DNA from: Dehalobacter sp. DCM
Lineage (GTDB): Bacteria; Bacillota; Desulfitobacteriia; Desulfitobacteriales; Syntrophobotulaceae
Assembly (NCBI RefSeq): GCF_024972775.1
Contig: NZ_CP092282.1
Span: forward strand, 3,747,525-3,811,524
DNA: 64,000 nt
Reading direction: 5' to 3'
The notes under the pieces are model-generated. The model saw only the letters and a program-made list of their open reading frames with translations, did no database searches and was not told the DNA's origin. Position 1 is the first letter of the stretch. The number at the start of each line of letters is the position of its first letter. Shown one piece after another: positions 22,282-38,524 of this stretch. The position numbers and the translations under genes are program-made.

Positions 22282-23649
22282 TCATGTATCCTTCCGCTTA
22301 AGATTGGCCGTGACAGAATTGCTGTTTCTAATAGTATCAGCCATTCCTAATAAAATATTTTTATTATTCAACTCCGGGTTCTGCAAAACCTCTTCCATCA
22401 AATACCTTAGGGTATCGCCTAATCGCTTTCCCGGTTCAAAACCAATCATCCTCAGATCATTGCCATTCACCTTCAAATCCTTCAAGGCTAAAGGTTCTTT
22501 CTGGTTCAAAATACGTTCGACTTCTTTTCTCTGCCTGATGATTTTACTAAAGTCGTGAGGCGGCTTGCTTCCTTGGACATCTGCCAGCTGAAGTGCGAAT
22601 AGATCGTCCAAATTGTCAACGCCGACTCGGGTAATGAACCTTTTTATACTGGCAGTGCGCAGGGTGTCATACCGATACATATGATTATAGACGAGAATTC
22701 CAACTTTCTTCACTGTATCATGATCGAACTTTAAGCGCAACAAAATGTCTCTGGCCATGTCCGCGCCCAGTTTATGATGCTCGTAAAAATGACCAATGCC
22801 ATCTTCACCCAATGAAAATGCTGCCGGTTTCCCGATATCGTGCATTAAAGCCGCCCACCTTAGGGACAACGTATTGGGAACCGCATCCAGAACAAGCATA
22901 GTGTGTTCCAATACATCTTTATGATGATGCGGATTATGCTGATCAAAATCTGCCAGGCTGCAGATTTCAGGAAGGAAATAGCGCAATAATCCGGTTTTGT
23001 ATAAAAGGCTGATTCCCCGGCTTGGGAAATCAGAAATCAATATTTTATTCGTTTCCTCTCGGATTCTTTCCATGCTGATCCATTGAATCCGCTCCCTGTT
23101 TCGACAAAGCGAGTCGTAAACCACGCCATCGATAGTGGCGCCAAGCTGGCAGGCAAAACGAATACACCGCAGCATGCGCAGGGCATCTTCTCTGAATCGC
23201 TCGTCGGCATTGCCAACGGTGTTGATCACGTTCGCGCGAATCGCTTCCTGCCCACAGAATGGGTCGACGATACCCGTTTTCGGATTATAGGCAATCGCAT
23301 TCATCGTAAAATCCCGCCTGGCCAGATCCTCAATCAATGAGGATGAATATTTGATCGTGTCCGGCCGCCGGTTGTCCGAGTATTCGCCATCGATTCGATA
23401 CGTCGTCACTTCAAACGGCTCATGATCCAGCATCACGGTAATCGTCCCATGCTTCAGGCCGGTAGGAATGGTATGGTAATCCTTAAACACAGTGAGCATT
23501 TGCTCCGGCAAGGCGTTGGTGGTAATATCCCAATCCTTTGGCATTACCCCCAAGATCAGGTCACGGACGCAGCCACCCACGATAAAGGCTTCGTATCCGC
23601 TGAACTCTAATATTTCAATAATTCTTTTAGCTTTTGGATTTATAAGCAC
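22282..23649 (-). CDS. cca: CCA tRNA nucleotidyltransferase with HD phosphohydrolase domain
   Basis: Pol-beta head GGCVRD...DWD and HD motif ALMHDIGKP. GTG start with AGGAG 7 nt upstream. Confidence 0.8.
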   Translation of the reverse strand: MLINPKAKRIIEILEFSGYEAFIVGGCVRDLILGVMPKDWDITTNALPEQMLTVFKDYHTIPTGLKHGTITVMLDHEPFEVTTYRIDGEYSDNRRPDTIKYSSSLIEDLARRDFTMNAIAYNPKTGIVDPFCGQEAIRANVINTVGNADERFREDALRMLRCIRFACQLGATIDGVVYDSLCRNRERIQWISMERIREETNKILISDFPSRGISLLYKTGLLRYFLPEICSLADFDQHNPHHHKDVLEHTMLVLDAVPNTLSLRWAALMHDIGKPAAFSLGEDGIGHFYEHHKLGADMARDILLRLKFDHDTVKKVGILVYNHMYRYDTLRTASIKRFITRVGVDNLDDLFALQLADVQGSKPPHDFSKIIRQRKEVERILNQKEPLALKDLKVNGNDLRMIGFEPGKRLGDTLRYLMEEVLQNPELNNKNILLGMADTIRNSNSVTANLKRKDT

Positions 23650-23843
23650 ACGAAACTCCTATACTTCTGATTAGTCAAATCGCTGGGGGATTCAACGGTA
23701 ATTCCCCTGACATCAATGTCCGAACCTACGGTGTTCGTCCCATAAGCATAAGATCCGCTTAAGGTCAGTAAGATAACATGCTTACCGAGATGGGGTTCGT
23801 TTCGGATAAATTGATATTCAGGTTGCTGCAATAACTCTTTCAT
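23640..23843 (-). pseudogene. truncated nucleotidyltransferase (67-aa N-terminal remnant with intact SD)
   Basis: LTLSGSYAYGTNTVGSDIDVRG is the N-terminal nucleotidyltransferase fold motif of ~250-aa proteins. The ORF stops after 67 aa and its last codons overlap the cca start. Confidence 0.45.
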
Positions 23844-24242
23844 GATATTTCTTCCTCTTTAAGGAGAATGTATTACCTTATATGATATCACAAATTAGGG
23901 AATAAGCATCTTTCTCCGTCTATGCATCGCTCCAAGACTGCCGGAGCATACTAAGCATTCATTAAAACAAAACATCATGTACTTCTATTTTTTACCGAAA
24001 CACAGGCCCTTTGTCTTTTTATTTCCTATTTCAGGGATAATTATGAGCATGGTATATTCCCGGGTATTAGTCAACTTGGAAATGTTCCATGAACCTGAAA
24101 ATTTCCTAATAAGAGCAGGTAATTTTACGTTTTGGTTTGCGCTTGCAACCTGGGGCTACTTTAAATTAAACAGTTATATTGAAACAAAACATCATAAGCA
24201 TGAATGTCAGAAGGATTAGAAAAGAGGTATACAGGTTTGATG

Positions 24243-24385
24243 ATCTATTCCAGCCTTTATTGACCTTGCCAATACAGATCAGGCTGCCGTTCCACATATT
24301 GATTGGAATTAACAGACGTTCCCCGGGCTATCGCGGACACCGCCCAATACATATGATCATCGCTTCGGTATCGATATAATTATGG
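24243..24385 (-). pseudogene. rtcB-paralog fragment
   Basis: About 140 nt with ~85% nucleotide identity to 30399..30540 inside rtcB (ccagcctttatt...gatcaggctgccgt...catattgattggaat...cgcttcggtatcgatata). No ORF spans it. Confidence 0.6.
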
Positions 24386-24424
24386 CTATTTGTGATTTAT
24401 TTCACTTAATTAACTTCATCCCTT

Positions 24425-24530
24425 CCTTCAAGGGCAACGTTATCGGAGCCGCGTCCAGAACGAGCAAGATATAATCCAACACATTTTGATGATGACGCCG
24501 ATACTGCTGATCCAGGCGGAGGTTTTACAA
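24425..24530 (-). pseudogene. cca/HD-domain paralog fragment
   Basis: About 105 nt with ~70% identity to 22850..22960 of cca (gcgtccagaac.agca...tgatgatg.cg.at..tgctgatc). No ORF spans it. Confidence 0.5.
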
Positions 24531-24622
24531 ATCGGGAACGTTGGTAAATAAATGGGACAATTGCCCTGGTCTTTTTTATTCAATCGCTTTGAATTACAAG
24601 GGATTTTATTTCGTTATTGTAT

Positions 24623-24638
24623 TGGCACGCTATTTGCA
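24623..24638 (+). promoter_or_regulatory. sigma-54 (-24/-12) promoter
   Basis: TGGCACGCTATTTGCA matches the TGGCACG-N4-TTGCW consensus exactly. It lies 97 nt upstream of the ATG at 24735. Confidence 0.7.
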
Positions 24639-24734
24639 ATATTAGTCTGTGAAACCCAGCGCTGGAGGTTTCCAACAGTTATCTATCAATAATGAAGAAT
24701 GATGAAAACATTATCAGAAAGGAAGGTCGAATCA

Positions 24735-26972
24735 ATGGAAGAAAAAAGCTGGTCATATGCTCAGCATTCCAAACCTTTCAAGTATCAAGAAGGTAATCTT
24801 ACAGTCACTAGGGGTAGTGCCTGGTCAGGACCTGGCTGCCATCTCGGCTGCGGTGTCCTGCTCTATACCGACGAAAACGGTAAACTGGTCAAAGTGGAAG
24901 GAGATCCGGAAAATCCTTATAACGACGGCAGACTTTGTGTTCGATGTCTGAACGTCAATGAAGTGACCAACCACAAAGACCGGCTGCTATATCCCATGAA
25001 ACGTGACCCAAAAGACCGCGGCAAAGATAAATGGGAACGCATCAGTTGGGACGAAGCTTATGACATTATTGTCGAAAAGTTCAATAAAATTAAAGACGAA
25101 TTCGGGGCAGAAACCATTCTCTTTACACAAGGGACTGGGCGCGATATTGCCCAATGGATTTCACGGCTTGCTTGGTCTTTCGGATCACCAAACTATTGCT
25201 ACCATCTTTCTGGTGCAGCCTGTTATCTGCCGCGCGTCGCCGGCATGGCCGTCACCACAGGGGGCTACTGGGTAGCCGATTGTTCACAGCAATTTATTGA
25301 CCGTTATGACAACCCCCAGTATCAAGTACCTGAGACTATGTTCGTTTGGGGTAATTATCCGCTTACCTCCAACTCAGACGGATTTTATGGCCACTGGGTC
25401 ATCGATTTAATGAAACGCGGCATGAAGATTGTCTGCATCGACCCCAAGGTCACCTGGCTGGCTGCCCGTGCGGAAGAGCATCTGCGGGTCCGTCCCGGTA
25501 CCGACGCTGCCCTGGCCCTGGGTATGCTCAATATCATTATCAACGAAGAACTCTATGATAAGGAATTCGTTGAAAAATGGACGCATGGCTTCGATCAGTT
25601 GAAAGAACGGGTACAGGAATACCCTGTGGAAAAAGTCGCTGAAATCACCTGGGTGCCGGCGGAAAAAATCCGCAATGCAGCGCACATTCTGGCAAAAAGC
25701 AAACCGGCGACCATGCAATGGGGACTGGCTGTGGATATGACCAAAGAGTCGCTGCCGGCAAGTCAAGCCATTGCTGCGCTGTTCTATATCACTGGCAATG
25801 CTGATATCCCGGGCGGGATCATTATGCCCCCCGAACTCCTTCCTTACTCCGGCGGTTTCGGCCATGATCTCTTGAGTCCGGAACAGGCAGAAAAACGTAT
25901 CGGTTTAAAAGATTATCCAATCTTCCAGTACGGCTTCCAAATCGCTCAGCCTGATGCCGTTCAAAAAGCACTGGAAACAGATGACCCTTACAAAATCCAT
26001 GCCGGCTGGTTCCAAACCACCAATCCCATTGCCTGTGTTGCCGCTCAGCCGAAGCGTTGGGCCGAAGCAGTCAAGAAACTGGACTTCGTTGTTTTCGTCG
26101 ATATTTTTATGACCCCTTCCATCATGGAAGTCGCAGACATTGTTCTGCCGGCCGCGACGTTCCCTGAGCGCGACGGACTCCGGGTTGGCGACGGTGTACA
26201 AAGAGGCGAAGTCATTAACAAAGTCACCCAAATCGGGGAATGCAAGTCGGACATGCAAATCAACCTCGAACTGGGCAAGCGCTTTAATCCTGCTGCTTGG
26301 CCATGGGAAAATGTCCAGGCAATGTTCTCCGATATTCTGAAACCGACCGGTTTCTCGTTCCAGGAACTTCAGGAAAAAGCGCCGGCCTATATGCCCTTTA
26401 CCTACAAACGCTATGAAAAGGGTCTTTTCAGACCGGATGGGCAGCCCGGGTTTAATACCGGTACCGGGAAAATCGAACTTTATTCTACGTTCTACGAAAT
26501 GGTCGGCCTTGACCCATTGCCCTACTTTGAAGAACCGTCTCCCGGACCGGGCGCCACACCGGAGCTTCTGGAAGAGTACCCGCTGGTGCTCACGACCGGT
26601 GCCCGTATCTGGAGCATGTTCCATTCGGAACACCGCCAAATAGAACGCAACCGTGCTTTCAGACCGGATCCGGAGATTGAAGTTAATCCGGACACGCTCA
26701 AAAAGCTTGGGATCAAAGACGGCGATTGGGTTTGGGTAGAAAACGAACGCGGTCGGGCCAAAAGACGCGTCAAAGGCACTCCGGTAATCGATCCGCGCAT
26801 GTGTTCGTGTGATCACGCCTGGTGGCGGCCGGAAGCAGGCCCTGAAAACCTTTATGATGTTTTAGACCTGAACATCAACAATCTCGTTCCCTGGATTCCC
26901 GGCAAGAGCGGATTTGGTTCCAATTTCAAAACCATGCTGTGCAAGCTTTATAAAGTGAAGGAGGGAGAATAA
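24735..26972 (+). CDS. molybdopterin oxidoreductase catalytic subunit (DMSO-reductase superfamily), cytoplasmic
   Basis: N-terminal Cys motif (CHLGC...CVRC), no Tat/Sec signal, about 745 aa with MopB-like architecture. Start chosen at MEEKSW, 9 nt after AAAGGAAGG. Confidence 0.85.
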   Translation: MEEKSWSYAQHSKPFKYQEGNLTVTRGSAWSGPGCHLGCGVLLYTDENGKLVKVEGDPENPYNDGRLCVRCLNVNEVTNHKDRLLYPMKRDPKDRGKDKWERISWDEAYDIIVEKFNKIKDEFGAETILFTQGTGRDIAQWISRLAWSFGSPNYCYHLSGAACYLPRVAGMAVTTGGYWVADCSQQFIDRYDNPQYQVPETMFVWGNYPLTSNSDGFYGHWVIDLMKRGMKIVCIDPKVTWLAARAEEHLRVRPGTDAALALGMLNIIINEELYDKEFVEKWTHGFDQLKERVQEYPVEKVAEITWVPAEKIRNAAHILAKSKPATMQWGLAVDMTKESLPASQAIAALFYITGNADIPGGIIMPPELLPYSGGFGHDLLSPEQAEKRIGLKDYPIFQYGFQIAQPDAVQKALETDDPYKIHAGWFQTTNPIACVAAQPKRWAEAVKKLDFVVFVDIFMTPSIMEVADIVLPAATFPERDGLRVGDGVQRGEVINKVTQIGECKSDMQINLELGKRFNPAAWPWENVQAMFSDILKPTGFSFQELQEKAPAYMPFTYKRYEKGLFRPDGQPGFNTGTGKIELYSTFYEMVGLDPLPYFEEPSPGPGATPELLEEYPLVLTTGARIWSMFHSEHRQIERNRAFRPDPEIEVNPDTLKKLGIKDGDWVWVENERGRAKRRVKGTPVIDPRMCSCDHAWWRPEAGPENLYDVLDLNINNLVPWIPGKSGFGSNFKTMLCKLYKVKEGE

Positions 26973-26974
26973 GA

Positions 26975-27310
26975 ATGGCTAAGTATGGACTTCTGATCGA
27001 TTACAACTGGTGTACCGGTTGCCATTCCTGTGAAGTAGCCTGCCAAATGGAGTTAGGCCTTCCAGTCGGCCAGTATGGCATTAAACTGACGGAGCTCGGC
27101 CCATGGGAGTATGCACCGGGAAAATGGCAATTGACGTATGTCCCTATTCCCACTGACCAATGCACATTGTGTGATAAACGGGTCGCTATGGGGAAAATCC
27201 CCTCTTGCGTTCAGCACTGTCAGGCAAAATGCATGCAATACGGGCCCTTAGAAGAACTCTCCAAACTGCTGCTTGATCATCCGAAACAGGTACTCTATTC
27301 GTTGGATTAA
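26975..27310 (+). CDS. 4Fe-4S dicluster ferredoxin-type electron-transfer subunit
   Basis: CTGCHSCEVAC and CTLC...CVQHCQAKC cysteine clusters. The gene starts 3 nt after the alpha-subunit stop behind a GGAGGGAG SD. Confidence 0.8.
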   Translation: MAKYGLLIDYNWCTGCHSCEVACQMELGLPVGQYGIKLTELGPWEYAPGKWQLTYVPIPTDQCTLCDKRVAMGKIPSCVQHCQAKCMQYGPLEELSKLLLDHPKQVLYSLD

Positions 27311-27400
27311 GGTTCTGCTGGAACGGGGAAGCGGCCGGCGGTGTACACTCGTCCGCCGCCGAACTCACCCAGCATCCAACTGTACGAAAGGAGCAAAATC

Positions 27401-27790
27401 ATGAACGTGTTGAAACCAATCTTATCCGCTTTCGTTGTCGGAGGAATTTTTTCCGTCATCGGGCAGTTCCTGGCAAACGTGTATACCTCGGCACTCGGAC
27501 CAGGAAATCCATTAATCGACATTTTTACCTTAATCTCACTCGGCCTGATTGGTGCGGTGTTGTATATTACCGGCATCCATCAAAAGATTGAGAAGTTTGG
27601 CGGATACGGGACTATCCTGCCTTTTAACGGCTTTGCCGCCGCCGTAGCAGGTACTTTTTCAACAGCGAAAGCCCAGGCCGGCACTTCTGCTGCGGGAATA
27701 AAAGCAGCCGTATCGCTTGTTGTGTATGTACTGGGTATCGGATCAATTTTAGCGGCAATCGTCGGCATCGTCGCATTTTATACCGTATAG
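27401..27790 (+). CDS. SpoVAC-family membrane protein
   Basis: KPILSAFVVGGIFSVIGQFLANVYTSAL and GTILPFNGFAAAV align with SpoVAC (KNCLYAFFVGGLICVIGQ..., GTLVPITGFANSV). SD AAAGGAG. Confidence 0.75.
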   Translation: MNVLKPILSAFVVGGIFSVIGQFLANVYTSALGPGNPLIDIFTLISLGLIGAVLYITGIHQKIEKFGGYGTILPFNGFAAAVAGTFSTAKAQAGTSAAGIKAAVSLVVYVLGIGSILAAIVGIVAFYTV

Positions 27791-27802
27791 GAGGTTATTT
27801 TG

Positions 27803-28171
27803 ATGTATCTTACAGCGTTTCTTCTTGGCGGTATCCTTTGTGCACTTTTTCAAATATTCGGCATGTTTACGAAGCTTGATCCGCCGCGTGTTCTTATTTT
27901 AGGTGTTGCTATAGGCGGATTGCTGACGCCTTTCGGTATGTTGGCACAACTTGGTCAGTGGGGCGGCGCCGGGCTTACCGTCATGTGTATGGCGGCCGGC
28001 AGTGCCGTGACCGGCACCACGATGGCGCTTCTTGGCGGCAATCCGGTGCCAATTCTGATGATCCTTGGTCTCTTTGTCACTTTGACACTTATCGGGATCG
28101 TAGCAGGCTTAATTCGTGCGGCAGTGACAAAAGATACTGTCGTGAACAATGTACAAAGCGCTAATAAGTAA
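27803..28171 (+). CDS. SpoVAEb-family membrane protein
   Basis: MYLTAFLLGGILCALFQ... parallels the SpoVAEb N-terminus. SD GGAGG. Confidence 0.7.
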   Translation: MYLTAFLLGGILCALFQIFGMFTKLDPPRVLILGVAIGGLLTPFGMLAQLGQWGGAGLTVMCMAAGSAVTGTTMALLGGNPVPILMILGLFVTLTLIGIVAGLIRAAVTKDTVVNNVQSANK

Positions 28172-28387
28172 GACTAAAAAAATTAACGCTTAACGTTTAA
28201 TCAGGATGGCCCGTCAATGTTTTTGCCGGGCCGTCCTAACGCTGATATCCTTATTGGGTACATTATTTTTAATATGGAATTAACGATCGTTATCCTTTAT
28301 AATTAATCATCATCAACGAAATGTTTATATCCTGACCACCCAGCCCGGAATTGTGTTTTTGCCTGTTATTTGGGAGGTGTTTTGTAT

Positions 28388-30139
28388 ATGATTCATTCTT
28401 TCTATAACAAACAAGATATCATATCGACTTCTGAAGTCCATACAGCTATAACTGCGATCAACTTTCAGAAAGAGCTTTTCTTACACAGCCGTAAGAACCA
28501 TGACACAACTTCCTTGTTAAGACCGGAGGTAGCTACTTCATGGAAACGATCCAAAAAATTGAAGATCGACCCAGAAATGCAGGAGCTTGCCCATGCCCTA
28601 AGTGAAAAGGAACTAAACGCACTATTGTACGATAAGCGAACATTTGTAGATCTGACGAAAACTCACCTTTATAGTTTTCTCCCCCTGCTCAATATACCCA
28701 AATGTGCCATTACGATCTTTGACGAAAACGGCACCTTATTAGACGTGTCTGATCCTTATCAACTGCTTCGTCTCAACCCGCACAGTGGTTCAATCTGGAG
28801 AGAAGAAACCGTTGGCACCACTTCGACTTCTCTCTCCATGGAATACGGAAAAATCGTTCAACTATCCGGACCACTTCATTATTGCAAAGCGCTGGAGAAT
28901 CAGTTGGCCACAACGGCACCGGTCTACGATTTAGAGGGAAATCGCTTAGGGATTATCACGATTATTCATCATCTCAGCGATGAGCTGTTTAATGTAGAAA
29001 CCAGCCAGCGGATTTTGCTTTGGATATCCGCTTTGCGGTATATGGTGGAAAGTCAATTCGCCCTGTTAAAACGCAGCTATACTCTGAATGGTGGGGGATT
29101 TGAAGGGAGAAACAGAGAATATCTCCTTCCTATACCGGAAGATCACAACATGCTTGACTGCTATGAAAAAGGGCTAACGGCAAACAGTCCTTTTTCGACG
29201 ATCTTGGGCGAGAGTCCGCAAATCCAAAACGTAATCCGGACGGCGGAACGCTTTGCACCAAGCGAGAGCGGTATTCTCCTTACCGGAGAAAGCGGTACGG
29301 GCAAAGAAATGTTTGCTCAGGCTATTCATCAGGCCAGTGGAAGAAGCGGTCCTTTTGTTGCGATTAATTGCGCTGCTCTTCCCGGCAATCTCATTGCCAG
29401 TGAATTGTTCGGATATGTCGGAGGGGCTTTCACCGGTGCCGAAAATAAAGGCCGCTTGGGGAGAATTGAATTGGCTAAGGAAGGAACTTTGTTTTTGGAT
29501 GAAATCGGCGATATGCCTTTGGAAATTCAGCCAAATCTTCTGCGTGTGCTGGAAGACAAAAAAGTCACACGGTTAGGCAGCAATAAAGACATTCACGTTG
29601 ACTTTCGTCTGATTGCAGCAACTAATGTAGACCTTTTTCAGCTTGTACAGGAGAAAAAATTCCGTGCTGACTTATATTACCGCCTGGAAACACTGCAAAT
29701 GAAATTACCACCACTTCGAGAAAGGGGTCGGGATATTTTGCTGATTGCGAACTATTTTCTGGAGGAAATTTGCACAAAAGCCGGACGGGCACCGCTCAAA
29801 CTAAATAAAGATACGGAAACATTCCTTCTTAAACACGCTTGGCCGGGGAATATCAGGCAGCTTAAAAACGCTATGGTTTACGCTGCAAATATGTGTCAAG
29901 GGCAAGTCATTACGCTGCTTGAGCTGCCTGAAAGCGTTTATCGCGATATGGATATGGCGTTACCAGAAAAAGATTTAGTAAATTTTCCAATGTCTTCTCT
30001 TCAAGAGATAGAACTAAATTCAATAAAAAAAGCTCTGCTTTTATCCGGAAATAATGTACGCGGTGCTGCAAAAGTGTTAGGATTGAGCAAGACTTCCATT
30101 TATCGAAAAATAAAAGAATACAATATTGACATAACGTAA
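28388..30139 (+). CDS. sigma-54-dependent transcriptional activator (AcoR-like N-terminal sensor, AAA+ core, Fis-type HTH)
   Basis: GESGTGKEMFAQAIH and the GAFTGA motif in the AAA+ core. C-terminal HTH AAKVLGLSKTSIYRKI. N-terminal SWKRS-containing sensor domain. SD GGGAGG. Confidence 0.85.
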   Translation: MIHSFYNKQDIISTSEVHTAITAINFQKELFLHSRKNHDTTSLLRPEVATSWKRSKKLKIDPEMQELAHALSEKELNALLYDKRTFVDLTKTHLYSFLPLLNIPKCAITIFDENGTLLDVSDPYQLLRLNPHSGSIWREETVGTTSTSLSMEYGKIVQLSGPLHYCKALENQLATTAPVYDLEGNRLGIITIIHHLSDELFNVETSQRILLWISALRYMVESQFALLKRSYTLNGGGFEGRNREYLLPIPEDHNMLDCYEKGLTANSPFSTILGESPQIQNVIRTAERFAPSESGILLTGESGTGKEMFAQAIHQASGRSGPFVAINCAALPGNLIASELFGYVGGAFTGAENKGRLGRIELAKEGTLFLDEIGDMPLEIQPNLLRVLEDKKVTRLGSNKDIHVDFRLIAATNVDLFQLVQEKKFRADLYYRLETLQMKLPPLRERGRDILLIANYFLEEICTKAGRAPLKLNKDTETFLLKHAWPGNIRQLKNAMVYAANMCQGQVITLLELPESVYRDMDMALPEKDLVNFPMSSLQEIELNSIKKALLLSGNNVRGAAKVLGLSKTSIYRKIKEYNIDIT

Positions 30140-30148
30140 TTATCGGCA

Positions 30149-31357
30149 TTAATCCTCTTCTCCCGCTTTAAAGTTATAGATGGGTTTGATGATCTTGTCG
30201 ATGTCCGCGGTGGGCCCGATATTGTTTACGATATCATCCATATTTTTATAGGCCATTGGGCACTCATCGAGGGTATCTTTATTCACCGACGTGGTATAGA
30301 CATCCTTCATTTGTTTCTTGAATTCGGATAACGTAAACGCTTGTTTGGCCTTCGTCCGGCTCATCAGCCGCCCTGCCCCATGGGGCGCAGAATAATTCCA
30401 GCCTTTATTCCCCTTGCCGATGCAGATCAGGCTGCCGTCCCGCATATTGATTGGAATCAGCAGGCGTTCCCCTGCCTTCGCGGACACCGCTCCCTTACGT
30501 AAGATCATCGCTTCGGTATCGATATAGTTATGGGTGGTCGTGAATTGTTCCACTACGTCGAGCTTCATTCCTTTGACGATCTCCATGACCATGGCTTTAC
30601 GGTTCAATTCGGCAAACTGCTGAACGATTTTCATATCATGGATATAGTCATCAAACAGATTTCCGCTGACATAAGCCAGTGCATAGGGGACATCCGTAAT
30701 CACTTGACTTTTCAGTTCTTTTAAAGCCTTGGCGATCTCTTTATCCCGACCTTCGGCTTTATAGCGGGCAATCAAGGCTTCCAGATCCGGCTTTTCATTT
30801 TGGTTTAACTGTTGGTAACCGGCTTCCTGATAGTATTTGGCTACTTCCAGCCCCAAATGACGGCTGCCCGAGTGCACGACAACATACAAATCGCCTTCCT
30901 GGTCTTTATTGACCTCAATAAAGTGATTGCCTCCGCCTAATGTACCGATACTCTTCTGCGCTCTGTCCAGTTTGACTGCCTTCAGACAGCGCAGCGCCGT
31001 CAGGTCGATCTGTTCGTTATACCGGTGCGGGGTCTCCCTTACGGTATAGCCCGACGGAATGGATTCATAGATCAATTTATCCAGCTTCTGCAGCTCCAGC
31101 CGTTTATTGCTGATCCGGATGGTTTCCATCCCACAGCCGATATCCACCCCAACTAAGTTGGGAACCACTTTATCGGTAATCGTCATGGTAGTGCCGATGG
31201 TACACCCGGCCCCGGCATGGACGTCGGGCATGATCCGGATTTTACTGTCTTTGGCAAATTCCTGGTTGCATAGCGTTGCGATCTGGGACGCTGCGCCTTC
31301 CTCTAGTGTATCTGTAAATATTTTGGCTATATTATATTTTCCTCTAATTTCTTGCAT
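30149..31357 (-). CDS. rtcB: RNA-splicing ligase RtcB
   Basis: Full-length 402 aa with metal-ligand motifs (PDVHAGAGCTIG, HNYI..., HGAGR). Confidence 0.9.
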   Translation of the reverse strand: MQEIRGKYNIAKIFTDTLEEGAASQIATLCNQEFAKDSKIRIMPDVHAGAGCTIGTTMTITDKVVPNLVGVDIGCGMETIRISNKRLELQKLDKLIYESIPSGYTVRETPHRYNEQIDLTALRCLKAVKLDRAQKSIGTLGGGNHFIEVNKDQEGDLYVVVHSGSRHLGLEVAKYYQEAGYQQLNQNEKPDLEALIARYKAEGRDKEIAKALKELKSQVITDVPYALAYVSGNLFDDYIHDMKIVQQFAELNRKAMVMEIVKGMKLDVVEQFTTTHNYIDTEAMILRKGAVSAKAGERLLIPINMRDGSLICIGKGNKGWNYSAPHGAGRLMSRTKAKQAFTLSEFKKQMKDVYTTSVNKDTLDECPMAYKNMDDIVNNIGPTADIDKIIKPIYNFKAGEED

Positions 31358-37266: not shown

Positions 37267-38466
37267 CTATTTAATGCCGAGCGACTTCACTTTGCGATAC
37301 AGGGTAGATTTGCTGAGGCCAAGTATTTCCGCTGCCTTAGCGATATTGTTGCCGGTGATGAGCATCGCGTTCCGTATCGCATTTTCTTCAGCGTTTCTTA
37401 CGGTATATTCCTGATCGACCTCAGCTGATGGTTGATCGATTGTTAAAGAAGGCACATTCTCTTCCACACGGGTTTTACTATTTCTAATTCCACACATCAC
37501 TTCCAACGGCAAATCCTTCGGCAGGATGATATCATGCTCGTAAATGTGCAAGGCATAAATCATCGCATTCTCTAATTGCCGTACATTACCCGGCCAATGA
37601 TAATCCAGTAATTTATATTGGGCATCTTTATCAATCACAGGAACTTTACTGCCGGCAGGGCAGTGTTTCTTTATTAAAAACTTAGCCAGAGAGATTATGT
37701 CTACCCCCCTCTGACGCAAAGGCGGAATATTTACCGTAAGTACGGAAAGACGATAAAATAAATCCAGACGAAATGACCCTTCTTCAACCATAATTTGAAG
37801 ATCTTTATTGGTTGCTGCGATTAATCTGAAATCGACGGGCCGATACTGTTGTCCGCCAACACGTAAGACCTGTTTATTTTCCAACACTCTTAAGAGTACA
37901 GCTTGTGTTTCCAGCGGCATATCGCCGATTTCATCCAGAAAGAGGGTACCACGTTCGGCTAATTCAATCTTGCCCTGGCTCCCGCCTTTCTTGGCCCCTG
38001 TAAACGCGCCTGCGTCATAGCCAAATAACTCACTTTCGATGAGATTCCGTGGTATCGCAGCACAATTCAGAACCACAAAATTCCCTTCAGGGCGGCCCTG
38101 ATTATGAATTGCCTGAGCAAATAGTTCTTTGCCTGTACCACTCTCACCGATCAGAAGGATATTTGCCGAAGATGGCGCAAAACGCTTCGCCAGCTTTTTG
38201 GCTTGAATCATCTGGTCGCTCTCCCCAATGATACTATTCAAGTCAAAACCGGTTTTGAGCCCGTGATTCACAGTCTCTTCATATTCATCATTATCGATTA
38301 TTTCTTTAACTTCCTCGTCATTGGACGGCAGTTCAACATACTCAAAATTTTCTTCTGCTTTCAATTGCGCATCGCATTTAATACAGTTTAATCGTGTTCG
38401 TGGATTTGCTGCGCCACAGTTCGGGCAGACTTTAATTTTAGTAGGCGTCGTCGGGCGAAAGCACAT
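37267..38466 (-). CDS. sigma-54-dependent activator with N-terminal zinc ribbon in place of a sensor domain
   Basis: CPNCGAANPRTRLNCIKCDAQL zinc ribbon, acidic linker, AAA+ core (GESGTGKELFAQAIH, GAFTGA), C-terminal HTH. ATG 38466 follows AGGTGGTG; the track start is a GTG inside that SD. Confidence 0.8.
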   Translation of the reverse strand: MCFRPTTPTKIKVCPNCGAANPRTRLNCIKCDAQLKAEENFEYVELPSNDEEVKEIIDNDEYEETVNHGLKTGFDLNSIIGESDQMIQAKKLAKRFAPSSANILLIGESGTGKELFAQAIHNQGRPEGNFVVLNCAAIPRNLIESELFGYDAGAFTGAKKGGSQGKIELAERGTLFLDEIGDMPLETQAVLLRVLENKQVLRVGGQQYRPVDFRLIAATNKDLQIMVEEGSFRLDLFYRLSVLTVNIPPLRQRGVDIISLAKFLIKKHCPAGSKVPVIDKDAQYKLLDYHWPGNVRQLENAMIYALHIYEHDIILPKDLPLEVMCGIRNSKTRVEENVPSLTIDQPSAEVDQEYTVRNAEENAIRNAMLITGNNIAKAAEILGLSKSTLYRKVKSLGIK

Positions 38467-38524
38467 GGGATTAAACACCACCTGAATTCAATAGGTCTCT
38501 CTAATAATTTATTATACAATAATT

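Follow-up and report, generated by a model that had tools for sequence, protein, structure and literature searches.

A SpoVAC/SpoVAEb-like membrane-protein pair as a candidate aromatic conduit in a sigma-54-type dehydroxylase operon of Dehalobacter sp. DCM

Cytoplasmic catechol dehydroxylases influence what becomes of dietary polyphenols and catecholamine drugs, and SpoVAC and SpoVAEb are membrane proteins that have so far been studied only as the dipicolinate path of endospores. Here, we describe an operon in which relatives of both are encoded side by side. It lies at positions 24386–30139 of a 64 000-nucleotide stretch of the genome of Dehalobacter sp. DCM (contig NZ_CP092282.1, positions 3 747 525–3 811 524; this whole stretch is referred to as the window and supplies the numbering used below). 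The region contains five co-oriented genes and no competing conserved open reading frames (ORFs). The genes encode a predicted molybdoenzyme catalytic subunit (alpha), its small iron–sulfur partner (beta), a SpoVAC-like (C-like) and a SpoVAEb-like (Eb-like) membrane protein, together called the pair, and a sigma-54-dependent activator, and they are separated by gaps of 2 nt (alpha–beta), 90 nt (beta–C), 12 nt (C–Eb) and 216 nt (Eb–activator). Alpha–beta is a member of the known Gordonibacter-type catechol dehydroxylase family, in a new host group and with another type of regulator. There is nothing unusual about the enzyme as such; the new element of the locus is the pair, which we read, with moderate confidence, as a vegetative SpoVA-like conduit for an aromatic substrate or product.

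Gordonibacter-type dehydroxylases combine a catalytic subunit of ∼750–790 amino acids that has no twin-arginine translocation (Tat) signal with a small 4Fe–4S protein, and their genes adjoin those of major facilitator superfamily (MFS) transporters and LuxR-type regulators (PMC7028382, PMC11585353, PMC11887054, PMC12771579). The class is regarded as a soluble cytoplasmic two-subunit enzyme without a Tat signal or an anchor (PMC7028382, PMC11887054). Two of its members, Dodh and Cldh, share 45% identity with each other and 24–26% with acetylene hydratase (Maini Rekdal et al., eLife 2020, supplementary file 2c, PMC7028382); homologues from Desulfitobacterium and other environmental bacteria are classed as putative only (PMC7028382). 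Coriobacteriia control these enzymes via membrane-bound LuxR sensors, and a two-subunit dehydroxylase of Gordonibacter is reported to support ATP production, no membrane link being named (PMC11585353). Substrate entry has only been guessed at: the current candidates are the MFS proteins of the clusters, which are proposed to import the substrate for the cytoplasmic enzyme (PMC12771579). In spores, dipicolinate, which is a small aromatic dicarboxylate, crosses the membrane through the C and Eb proteins (Gao et al., Genes Dev 2022, PMC9186386; Yu et al., mBio 2026, PMC13059800).

Like the Gordonibacter-type systems (Dodh, Cldh, Gp Hcdh and Eadh1/2/3), the operon encodes a MopB protein in the range ∼745–790 amino acids without a Tat signal together with a small Fe–S protein; alpha shares 42–48% identity, a W-S-G-P-G-C-H signature and the molybdenum-ligand cysteine with Dodh/Cldh; a regulator gene, albeit of another class, adjoins the enzyme genes; and a transporter gene, here a predicted one, is present in the cluster. 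It differs in its host, which is a Bacillota relative of organohalide respirers instead of one of the gut Coriobacteriia, in having a sigma-54 bacterial enhancer-binding protein (bEBP) and a −24/−12 promoter instead of a membrane LuxR-type regulator, and in that the membrane proteins of the cluster are a SpoVAC/Eb-like pair instead of an MFS transporter. The initial annotation of this DNA had presented the missing Tat signal and the missing anchor as an oddity. They are in fact the rule for this family, because the Gordonibacter-type class is described as cytoplasmic and two-subunit (PMC7028382, PMC11887054).

Family and architecture of the SpoVAC/SpoVAEb-like pair

The C-like protein (129 amino acids, four transmembrane helices and a short helix) is encoded at 27401–27790 and the Eb-like protein (122 amino acids), the partner half of the predicted conduit, at 27803–28171, both on the + strand. 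The most likely start codons are the ATG at 27401, which yields a protein with 100% identity to P0121, and the ATG at 27803. Both proteins belong to the SpoVA family, as initially annotated, with PF03862 scores of 50.6 bits (C-like) and 33.2 bits (Eb-like) against a cut-off of 25. The Pfam family name and the NCBI product name of the pair proteins ('SpoVA/SpoVAEb family sporulation membrane protein') would suggest ordinary spoVAC and spoVAEb genes that are chance neighbours of a molybdoenzyme in a spore-former, and Desulfitobacterium and similar relatives do form spores. The equivalog scores are far too low for this: the C-like protein reaches 44.4 against a cut-off of 164 for TIGR02838 (SpoVAC) and the Eb-like protein reaches 35.5 against 131.1 for TIGR02839, while in a canonical spoVA operon (L096, with the order SpoVAA–C–SpoVAD–Eb) the C and Eb proteins score 133 and 126 bits on PF03862. 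No SpoVAD, SpoVAA or SpoVAB accompanies the window pair, the genes of which are only 12 nt apart, whereas the canonical SpoVAD sits between C and Eb.

A search with the C-like profile splits the family clearly. About 80 clusters of 126–130 amino acids match at E ≤ 1e-23, whereas true SpoVAC proteins of 147–157 amino acids match only at 1e-12 to 1e-6. An exhaustive HMMER search of 1.84 billion representatives shows that the family is small: only 534 clusters match at E ≤ 1e-3 and only 138 at E ≤ 1e-10. The short subfamily reaches Coriobacteriia that do not sporulate: the whole module is kept in Gordonibacter urolithinfaciens and a member of the subfamily is present in Raoultibacter phocaeensis, both genera being non-spore-forming according to the species descriptions. 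Since it is present in Gordonibacter and Raoultibacter, the pair is not sporulation-related, and the idea of ordinary spoVA genes, already contradicted, deserves next to no credence.

What links the pair to the endospore SpoVAC–SpoVAD–SpoVAEb system (PMC9186386, PMC13059800) is membership of PF03862 and the co-encoding of two paralogous four-helix proteins, and the known cargo of that system, dipicolinate, is a small aromatic acid. The window pair differs from it in the absence of the SpoVAD plug, of SpoVAA/AB/AF and of the NJ2 cap, in the shorter C-like subfamily with scores under the equivalog cut-offs, and in the occurrence of the subfamily in catabolic operons, in non-sporulating Actinomycetota and as natural C–Eb fusions.

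These fusions account for about 30 of the HMMER matches (P0261, P0265, P0268, P0270 and others). They are 250–300 amino acids long and match the profile in two stretches; the N-terminal half is C-like and the C-terminal half is Eb-like. The gene for one of them, P0261, lies directly 3' of genes for a 746-residue alpha and a 110-residue beta (L105:3278–4087). The AlphaFold2 model of the C-like protein (predicted local distance difference test score, pLDDT, of 91) has four long helices and one short helix; the AlphaFold model of the fusion (pLDDT 93, predicted template modelling score 0.88) has eight long helices. The C and Eb genes are adjacent at every locus where the sequence 3' of the C-like gene is available. 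Because natural C–Eb fusions exist, one of them directly after alpha–beta, the C-like and Eb-like proteins are likely to form one unit, and this indirect evidence, together with the models, suggests that they act together in the membrane. Neither protein has a conserved histidine; the C-like protein has no conserved cysteine and the Eb-like protein has one that is largely conserved (C13, in 12 of 14 sequences). The remaining conserved positions of the pair are mostly glycines, and the C-like protein carries a Q-K-I-E loop motif.

Occurrence and possible role of the pair

The distribution of the pair was followed from both sides. A forward survey from alpha covered 80 genome loci and loci fetched by exact look-up, and a reverse survey from the C-like protein combined a metagenome scan with eleven exact look-ups, two of them on fusion proteins. 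In the forward survey the complete alpha–beta–C–Eb module is found in the window, in D. chlororespirans (L003/L004), in a Desulfitobacterium metagenome-assembled genome (L025) and in G. urolithinfaciens (L001). The module is kept across two phyla, from Desulfitobacteriaceae to Gordonibacter, and all of its loci in this survey fall into one alpha subclade with at least 64% identity to the window alpha. The same subclade also holds loci without the pair. Locus L005, the alpha of which is 85% identical to that of the window, encodes alpha, beta, a small Zn-ribbon protein and a bEBP with no trace of the pair, and the pair is likewise absent from sister loci at 64–69% alpha identity in G. pamelaeae, Gordonibacter sp. 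28C and related strains (L009–L011 and L013). In L009 and L021 an MFS_1 transporter gene lies directly 3' of beta on the same strand; the gene layout of L010 is that of L009. In L006 and L007 a radical SAM gene occupies the position of the pair. The pair can thus be lost without loss of the enzyme, and a classical transporter takes its place in some sister loci.

In the reverse survey, Gordonibacter-type alpha–beta genes are positioned directly 5' of the pair in L087, L089/L099, L090–L093, L098, L100 and L105 and ∼3 kb 5' of it in L101–L103 (alpha being identified from sequence in L103), while in L094 alpha lies 3' of the pair and has its own −24/−12 element. Related pair modules with LuxR regulators occur in uncultured Coriobacteriia loci. 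In most informative loci the pair adjoins catechol dehydroxylase genes, but it is not dedicated to one enzyme, because it is also found beside others. In L086 (2512–6772) an alpha resembling pyrogallol hydroxytransferase (PDB entry 4v4c, E 8e-141), which has a long beta and a BcrAD/BadFG-type ATPase gene on its upstream side, precedes the pair, after which comes a bEBP gene. In L104 (1–5802) a distant C/Eb-like pair directly follows a xanthine-oxidase-family enzyme composed of a Fer2 subunit, a molybdenum subunit closest to 4-hydroxybenzoyl-CoA reductase alpha and a large FAD/pyridine-nucleotide subunit, and is itself followed by ThiF-like and zinc alcohol dehydrogenase genes. In L085 (3460–8594) and L097 (1–8317) the pair lies inside a β-oxidation-like operon without a molybdenum enzyme. 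This operon encodes a 3-hydroxyacyl-CoA dehydrogenase, a short-chain dehydrogenase/reductase, a thiolase, a family III CoA-transferase, an acyl-CoA dehydrogenase that resembles acryloyl-CoA reductase or cyclohexanecarbonyl-CoA dehydrogenase, an FAD_binding_2 flavoprotein that resembles flavocytochrome c or vinylphenol reductase, and two ferredoxins.

As the pair is missing from L005 and found beside unrelated enzymes, it is probably not an enzyme subunit. We read it as an accessory unit that has repeatedly been recruited to operons for the cytoplasmic transformation of phenolic or alicyclic/aromatic acids. The initial annotation had called the combination of enzyme and SpoVA paralogs an undescribed subunit arrangement; the subunit part of this statement is probably wrong, while the pairing itself does appear to be new. 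A full-text literature search, which is no proof of absence in all literature, found no SpoVA proteins linked to these enzymes or taxa, and neither 'sporulation' nor 'SpoVA' nor 'stage V' occurs as an annotation in the supplements of the eLife 2020 study, RNA-seq tables included (PMC7028382). A combination of catechol dehydroxylases with SpoVA-family proteins therefore appears to be undescribed.

We favour a conduit because dipicolinate passage is the only known function of the family, and because no further transporter is encoded in the operon, which is flanked by unrelated housekeeping genes. The same reading accommodates a pair that can be lost, that stands beside varied enzymes, that is replaced by an MFS protein in some sister loci and that has no conserved histidine. 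The SpoVAC-like and SpoVAEb-like proteins would assemble as one eight-helix membrane unit that imports the aromatic substrate, exports the product or does both, in the way that sporulation C/Eb moves dipicolinate but without the SpoVAD plug; both the transport role and its direction are what we infer from this context. In L009 and L021 the MFS transporter has the same placement, directly after beta and on the same strand. Its fold and family are unrelated, with 12–14 helices in one chain compared with the 4 + 4 helices of the pair in two.

Several points weigh against a conduit. The transport argument is built on gene context. An MFS gene lies within 3.5 kb in 0 of 13 pair-bearing alpha loci and in 12 of 41 pair-less loci, but this apparent mutual exclusion is statistically weak and no more than suggestive, as the loci are related to one another and neither the pair nor an MFS gene is present in 29 of 46 well-flanked alpha loci. 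Every context of the pair holds redox enzymes with small Fe–S or flavin partners, so that a generic role in electron input is possible. As regards the regulatory part of the proposal, rpoN was not found among the annotated ORFs of the 64 kb window.

The redox contexts bear most directly on the possibility that the pair is a cofactor-less membrane dock, or a quinol-oxidizing anchor with an NrfD/DmsC-like function, that feeds beta and couples dehydroxylation to energy conservation. The genes of the pair lie directly 3' of beta in most loci, and C and Eb together provide eight transmembrane helices as two four-helix halves; NrfD-type anchors have eight helices and no haem. This explanation stays alive because all contexts of the pair are redox operons and because the two-subunit enzyme of Gordonibacter is reported to support ATP formation (PMC11585353). 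It is difficult to reconcile with the absence of the pair from the 85% identical orthologue in L005 and from most of the family, with the lack of conserved histidines in either protein and of conserved cysteines other than C13 of the Eb-like protein, and with the presence of the pair beside a CoA-transferase/acyl-CoA dehydrogenase operon and a xanthine-oxidase-family enzyme, which have different electron partners. Small-molecule passage is moreover the sole known function of the family. The models of the C-like and Eb-like proteins show no NrfD-like fold, the obligatory co-occurrence with the enzyme that characterizes NrfD/DmsC anchors is not seen, and the operon contains no NrfD-like gene. 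We therefore consider a dock or anchor unlikely. Its more specific form, in which the pair would supply the 'soluble' Gordonibacter-type dehydroxylases with the membrane link that they lack, as an eight-helix, cofactor-less dock coupling polyphenol dehydroxylation to quinol oxidation or ion movement, is in our estimate slightly less probable again. If correct, it would account for the way in which ATP formation can be supported by a cytoplasmic enzyme of two subunits, and the dipicolinate machine of sporulation would descend from, or have given rise to, a respiratory accessory.

The pair might also be a membrane sensor or signalling accessory for an external substrate, or a stress-related or mechanosensitive release valve. 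It adjoins the regulator gene in Bacillota loci, Coriobacteriia have membrane-bound LuxR sensors for these enzymes (PMC11585353), and C. difficile SpoVAC has been tied to a mechanosensing mechanism of dipicolinate release (PMC5156672). However, the pair is found with two unrelated types of regulator, bEBP and LuxR/GerE, and also in operons without a visible adjacent regulator gene (L097 and L104), and the bEBP of the window has a cytoplasmic sensor region of its own. A sensor or valve thus seems distinctly improbable.

If the conduit reading is correct, the biology of the SpoVA family would become wider by a vegetative branch that lacks SpoVAD, sometimes consists of a single chain and is present in non-sporulating gut Actinomycetota, and this branch would offer a simpler system in which to study how the C/Eb core moves a small aromatic acid. 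The pair would also be a second, unrelated class of candidate transporter in dehydroxylase clusters, directly testable in G. urolithinfaciens, for which expression and genetic tools are available (PMC9734109, PMC11887054).

The molybdoenzyme and its iron–sulfur partner

Alpha (24735–26972, + strand; 745 amino acids) is a predicted cytoplasmic catalytic subunit of the bis(molybdopterin guanine dinucleotide) (bis-MGD; MopB) type. Its start at 24735 is fixed by the exact 745-residue record WP_337985532.1 (Dehalobacter sp. DCM). The earlier description as a DMSO-reductase-family protein without a signal agrees with three Pfam domains, PF04879 (Molybdop_Fe4S4, 1.5e-9), PF00384 (Molybdopterin, 5e-34) and PF01568 (Molydop_binding, 2.5e-18), and with the N-terminus MEEKSWSYAQHSKPFKYQEGNLTVTRGSAWSGPGC, which contains neither an RR motif nor a hydrophobic core, and hence no Tat motif; only 34 residues precede the Fe–S motif, and none of them form RR. 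All NCBIfam equivalogs of other MopB enzymes score far under their cut-offs.

Dodh and Cldh were taken from the alignment file of the eLife study; alpha shares 46% identity with Cldh, 42% with Dodh and 48% with a third member of that alignment. It is 88% identical to a D. chlororespirans protein and 69% identical to one from G. urolithinfaciens, with homologues at 64–69% identity in Gordonibacter, Ellagibacter and Adlercreutzia. In a simple neighbour-joining tree on BLOSUM distances of 94 relatives it nests among Gordonibacter paralogues. The initial annotation had made its view of an unusual enzyme depend on the placement of alpha among the MopB clades. Alpha falls into the Gordonibacter-type family, with 42–46% identity to Dodh/Cldh, about as much as these two share with each other, and for the enzyme that view is largely overturned.

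The Fe–S motif of alpha is non-canonical, Gly32 taking the place of the first cysteine of C-x2-C-x3-C, and the W-S-G-P-G-C-H signature around Gly32 is common to the window alpha, Dodh and Cldh. Cys163, the counterpart of Cys141, which binds the metal in acetylene hydratase, and His36, which aligns with the catalytic Asp13 of that enzyme, are both invariant in 94 of 94 relatives. A further cysteine, C71, three residues past C68, is present in 52 of the 94 relatives only (alpha residues 30–71, 24735–24950).

Beta (26975–27310, + strand; 111 amino acids) is a small electron-transfer protein with Fer4-family matches in Pfam. Residues C13, C16, C19, C23, C63, C66, C78 and C82 do not vary among 88 small-beta homologues. 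This pattern fits two [4Fe–4S] clusters and upholds the initial assignment. Nearly every related alpha gene in the 80 genome loci is followed by a small beta gene on its 3' side. Alpha–beta is predicted to carry out catechol or polyphenol dehydroxylation: alpha, with a Mo-bis-MGD site and one Fe–S cluster, would reductively remove a phenolic hydroxyl of a catechol or polyphenol in the cytoplasm, and beta would hand electrons to alpha via its two [4Fe–4S] clusters.

The best solved relative of alpha is acetylene hydratase (Pelobacter acetylenicus, PDB entry 2e7z; E 4e-101), with which it shares the N-terminal Fe–S domain and the cysteine metal ligand. Alpha–beta could consequently be another enzyme of the acetylene hydratase branch, such as a hydratase or transhydroxylase whose substrate is not a catechol, the more so as few members of the family have been characterized, none of them more than 48% identical, and as environmental homologues, those of Desulfitobacterium included, have putative status only (PMC7028382). 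The identity of acetylene hydratase itself is ruled out for alpha, because the catalytic Asp13, the neighbour of the Fe–S Cys12, is replaced by the invariant His36 and because a beta subunit is present; Cys9, the first Fe–S cysteine, is in addition replaced by Gly32. Acetylene hydratase is a single-subunit, non-redox enzyme without a beta. For the branch as a whole, the invariant histidine in the relatives of alpha, the constant co-encoding of the redox partner beta and the position among the Gordonibacter paralogues in the tree all speak for a dehydroxylase, and the large subunit of pyrogallol transhydroxylase matches alpha at E 2e-8 only. A non-dehydroxylase activity is thus rather doubtful.

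A radical SAM protein of ∼423–425 amino acids recurs 3' of alpha–beta, with or without the pair, in Coriobacteriia (L001:9847–11118, L006:3328–4602 and L007:8957–10231). The eLife RNA-seq table (PMC7028382) has, as its top DOPAC-induced gene, one for a radical SAM protein at another locus.

Promoter, activator and surroundings of the operon

The initial annotation placed a −24/−12 element upstream of alpha, and this has proved sound. The element TGGCACGCTATTTGCA (24623–24638, + strand) reads TGGCAC-N5-TTGCA, with the −24 GG and −12 GC at consensus spacing, and is the sole match to TGGCAC-N5-TTGCW in the 64 kb window, where 0.11 matches are expected by chance and 10 of 100 shuffles contain at least one. 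The D. chlororespirans alpha is 88% identical, and upstream of its gene the flanks have diverged while TTGGCACG..ATTTGCA has stayed in register. The element is also present upstream of the alpha orthologues in L003/L004, L005 and L098 and of related alpha genes in L012, L014, L027, L028, L033 (Sporomusa), L037 and L094.

The annotation had further suggested looking for an upstream activator site with inverted repeats within 200 bp. A search for inverted repeats upstream of the operon returned only two short, weak palindromes. A conserved candidate site does exist in the form of a direct repeat: alignment of six upstream regions reveals two GGGA(A)C(A) direct repeats ∼20 bp apart (24534–24559, + strand), ∼78 bp 5' of the −24 GG. 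The repeats and their spacing are kept in five distinct upstream regions (window, L003, L005, L012/L098 and L014) with diverged surroundings, and this phylogenetic footprint makes them a candidate activator site.

The co-oriented activator gene downstream of the pair (28388–30139, + strand; start most likely the ATG at 28388) encodes a protein of 583 amino acids with Sigma54_activat (PF00158, 4e-66), AAA_lid_14 and HTH_8 domains and a GAFTGA motif (read as GGAFTGA), in agreement with its annotation as a bEBP. As in DhaR/AcoR-type activators, a AAA+ domain with GAFTGA is followed by a C-terminal Fis-type helix–turn–helix, and the N-terminal region matches the N-terminal sensor region of DhaR (PDB entry 4lrx, E 1e-7). 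Unlike in these activators, the N-terminal 269 residues have no Pfam match and the subfamily keeps company with dehydroxylase genes in Bacillota. Relatives that match over the full length (E 1e-220 to 1e-263) adjoin related alpha genes in many Bacillota loci, whereas the other bEBP of the window scores 2e-165 only against the activator profile, and the sensor region therefore appears to be part of an enzyme-associated subfamily. Coriobacteriia orthologues with the same module have GerE/LuxR regulators instead of a bEBP.

We picture the operon as self-contained: a module of Dehalobacter sp. DCM, catabolic or respiratory, that is inducible by its substrate. The activator may sense an aromatic inducer via its DhaR-like N-terminal region, bind the GGGAC repeats ∼80 bp upstream and open the sigma-54 promoter at 24623–24638; its own gene may be co-transcribed with the structural genes. 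Control of this enzyme family by sigma-54 and a bEBP in environmental Bacillota, with a recognizable promoter and a candidate operator, would provide a route to the inducers and hence to the substrates.

A G+C-rich hairpin without a U-tract is predicted at 28203–28237 (+ strand), between the structural genes and the activator gene. Folding of 28172–28300 gives −34 kcal/mol (z = −3.5 relative to shuffles), and the hairpin is not called by the consensus terminator scan. It may be a terminator or a processing/stability element that terminates, attenuates or stabilizes the transcript. Sigma-70 promoter and terminator scans gave fewer matches than shuffles and nothing useful in the intergenic regions. 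An Rfam scan of 23600–30600 at E up to 1 returned no match, and there is therefore no molybdenum cofactor (Moco) or other riboswitch in the leader.

A second sigma-54 activator is encoded in the window at 37267–38481 (− strand; 404 amino acids, Sigma54_activat and HTH_8), which hints that Dehalobacter sp. DCM uses sigma-54. Its N-terminal ∼45 residues are 49% identical (E 2e-10) to a free-standing 46-residue Zn-ribbon protein (L003:11480–11620), the gene of which comes after that for the SpoVAEb-like protein in D. chlororespirans and recurs in L005; the version in G. urolithinfaciens has 74 residues. The window has no such free-standing gene. The Zn-ribbon may be a regulatory module that is tied to these operons.

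The window flanks carry annotated genes for a CCA-adding enzyme, RtcB, SPFH, WYL, YitT, TelA and SelO proteins, together with an Fe-hydrogenase-like ORF and a lone URO-D-like ORF, none of which has a functional tie to the operon. Moco biosynthesis genes were not found among the annotated window ORFs. Upstream of the operon in L003, L004 and L098 lie a divergent AbpE_bact-like gene (L003:6691–7635, L004:184–1128 and L098:963–1898) and an ORF of 65–69 amino acids, and L005 has a 244-residue minus-strand ORF at the equivalent position (905–1636); the window shows no trace of either gene.

The G+C content of the structural genes is 50–52% (window 25000–27500 compared), against 42–46% in the flanks, and the identity of alpha between Bacillota and Coriobacteriia is 69%. 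The compositional contrast and the cross-phylum identity both fit horizontal transfer of the module.

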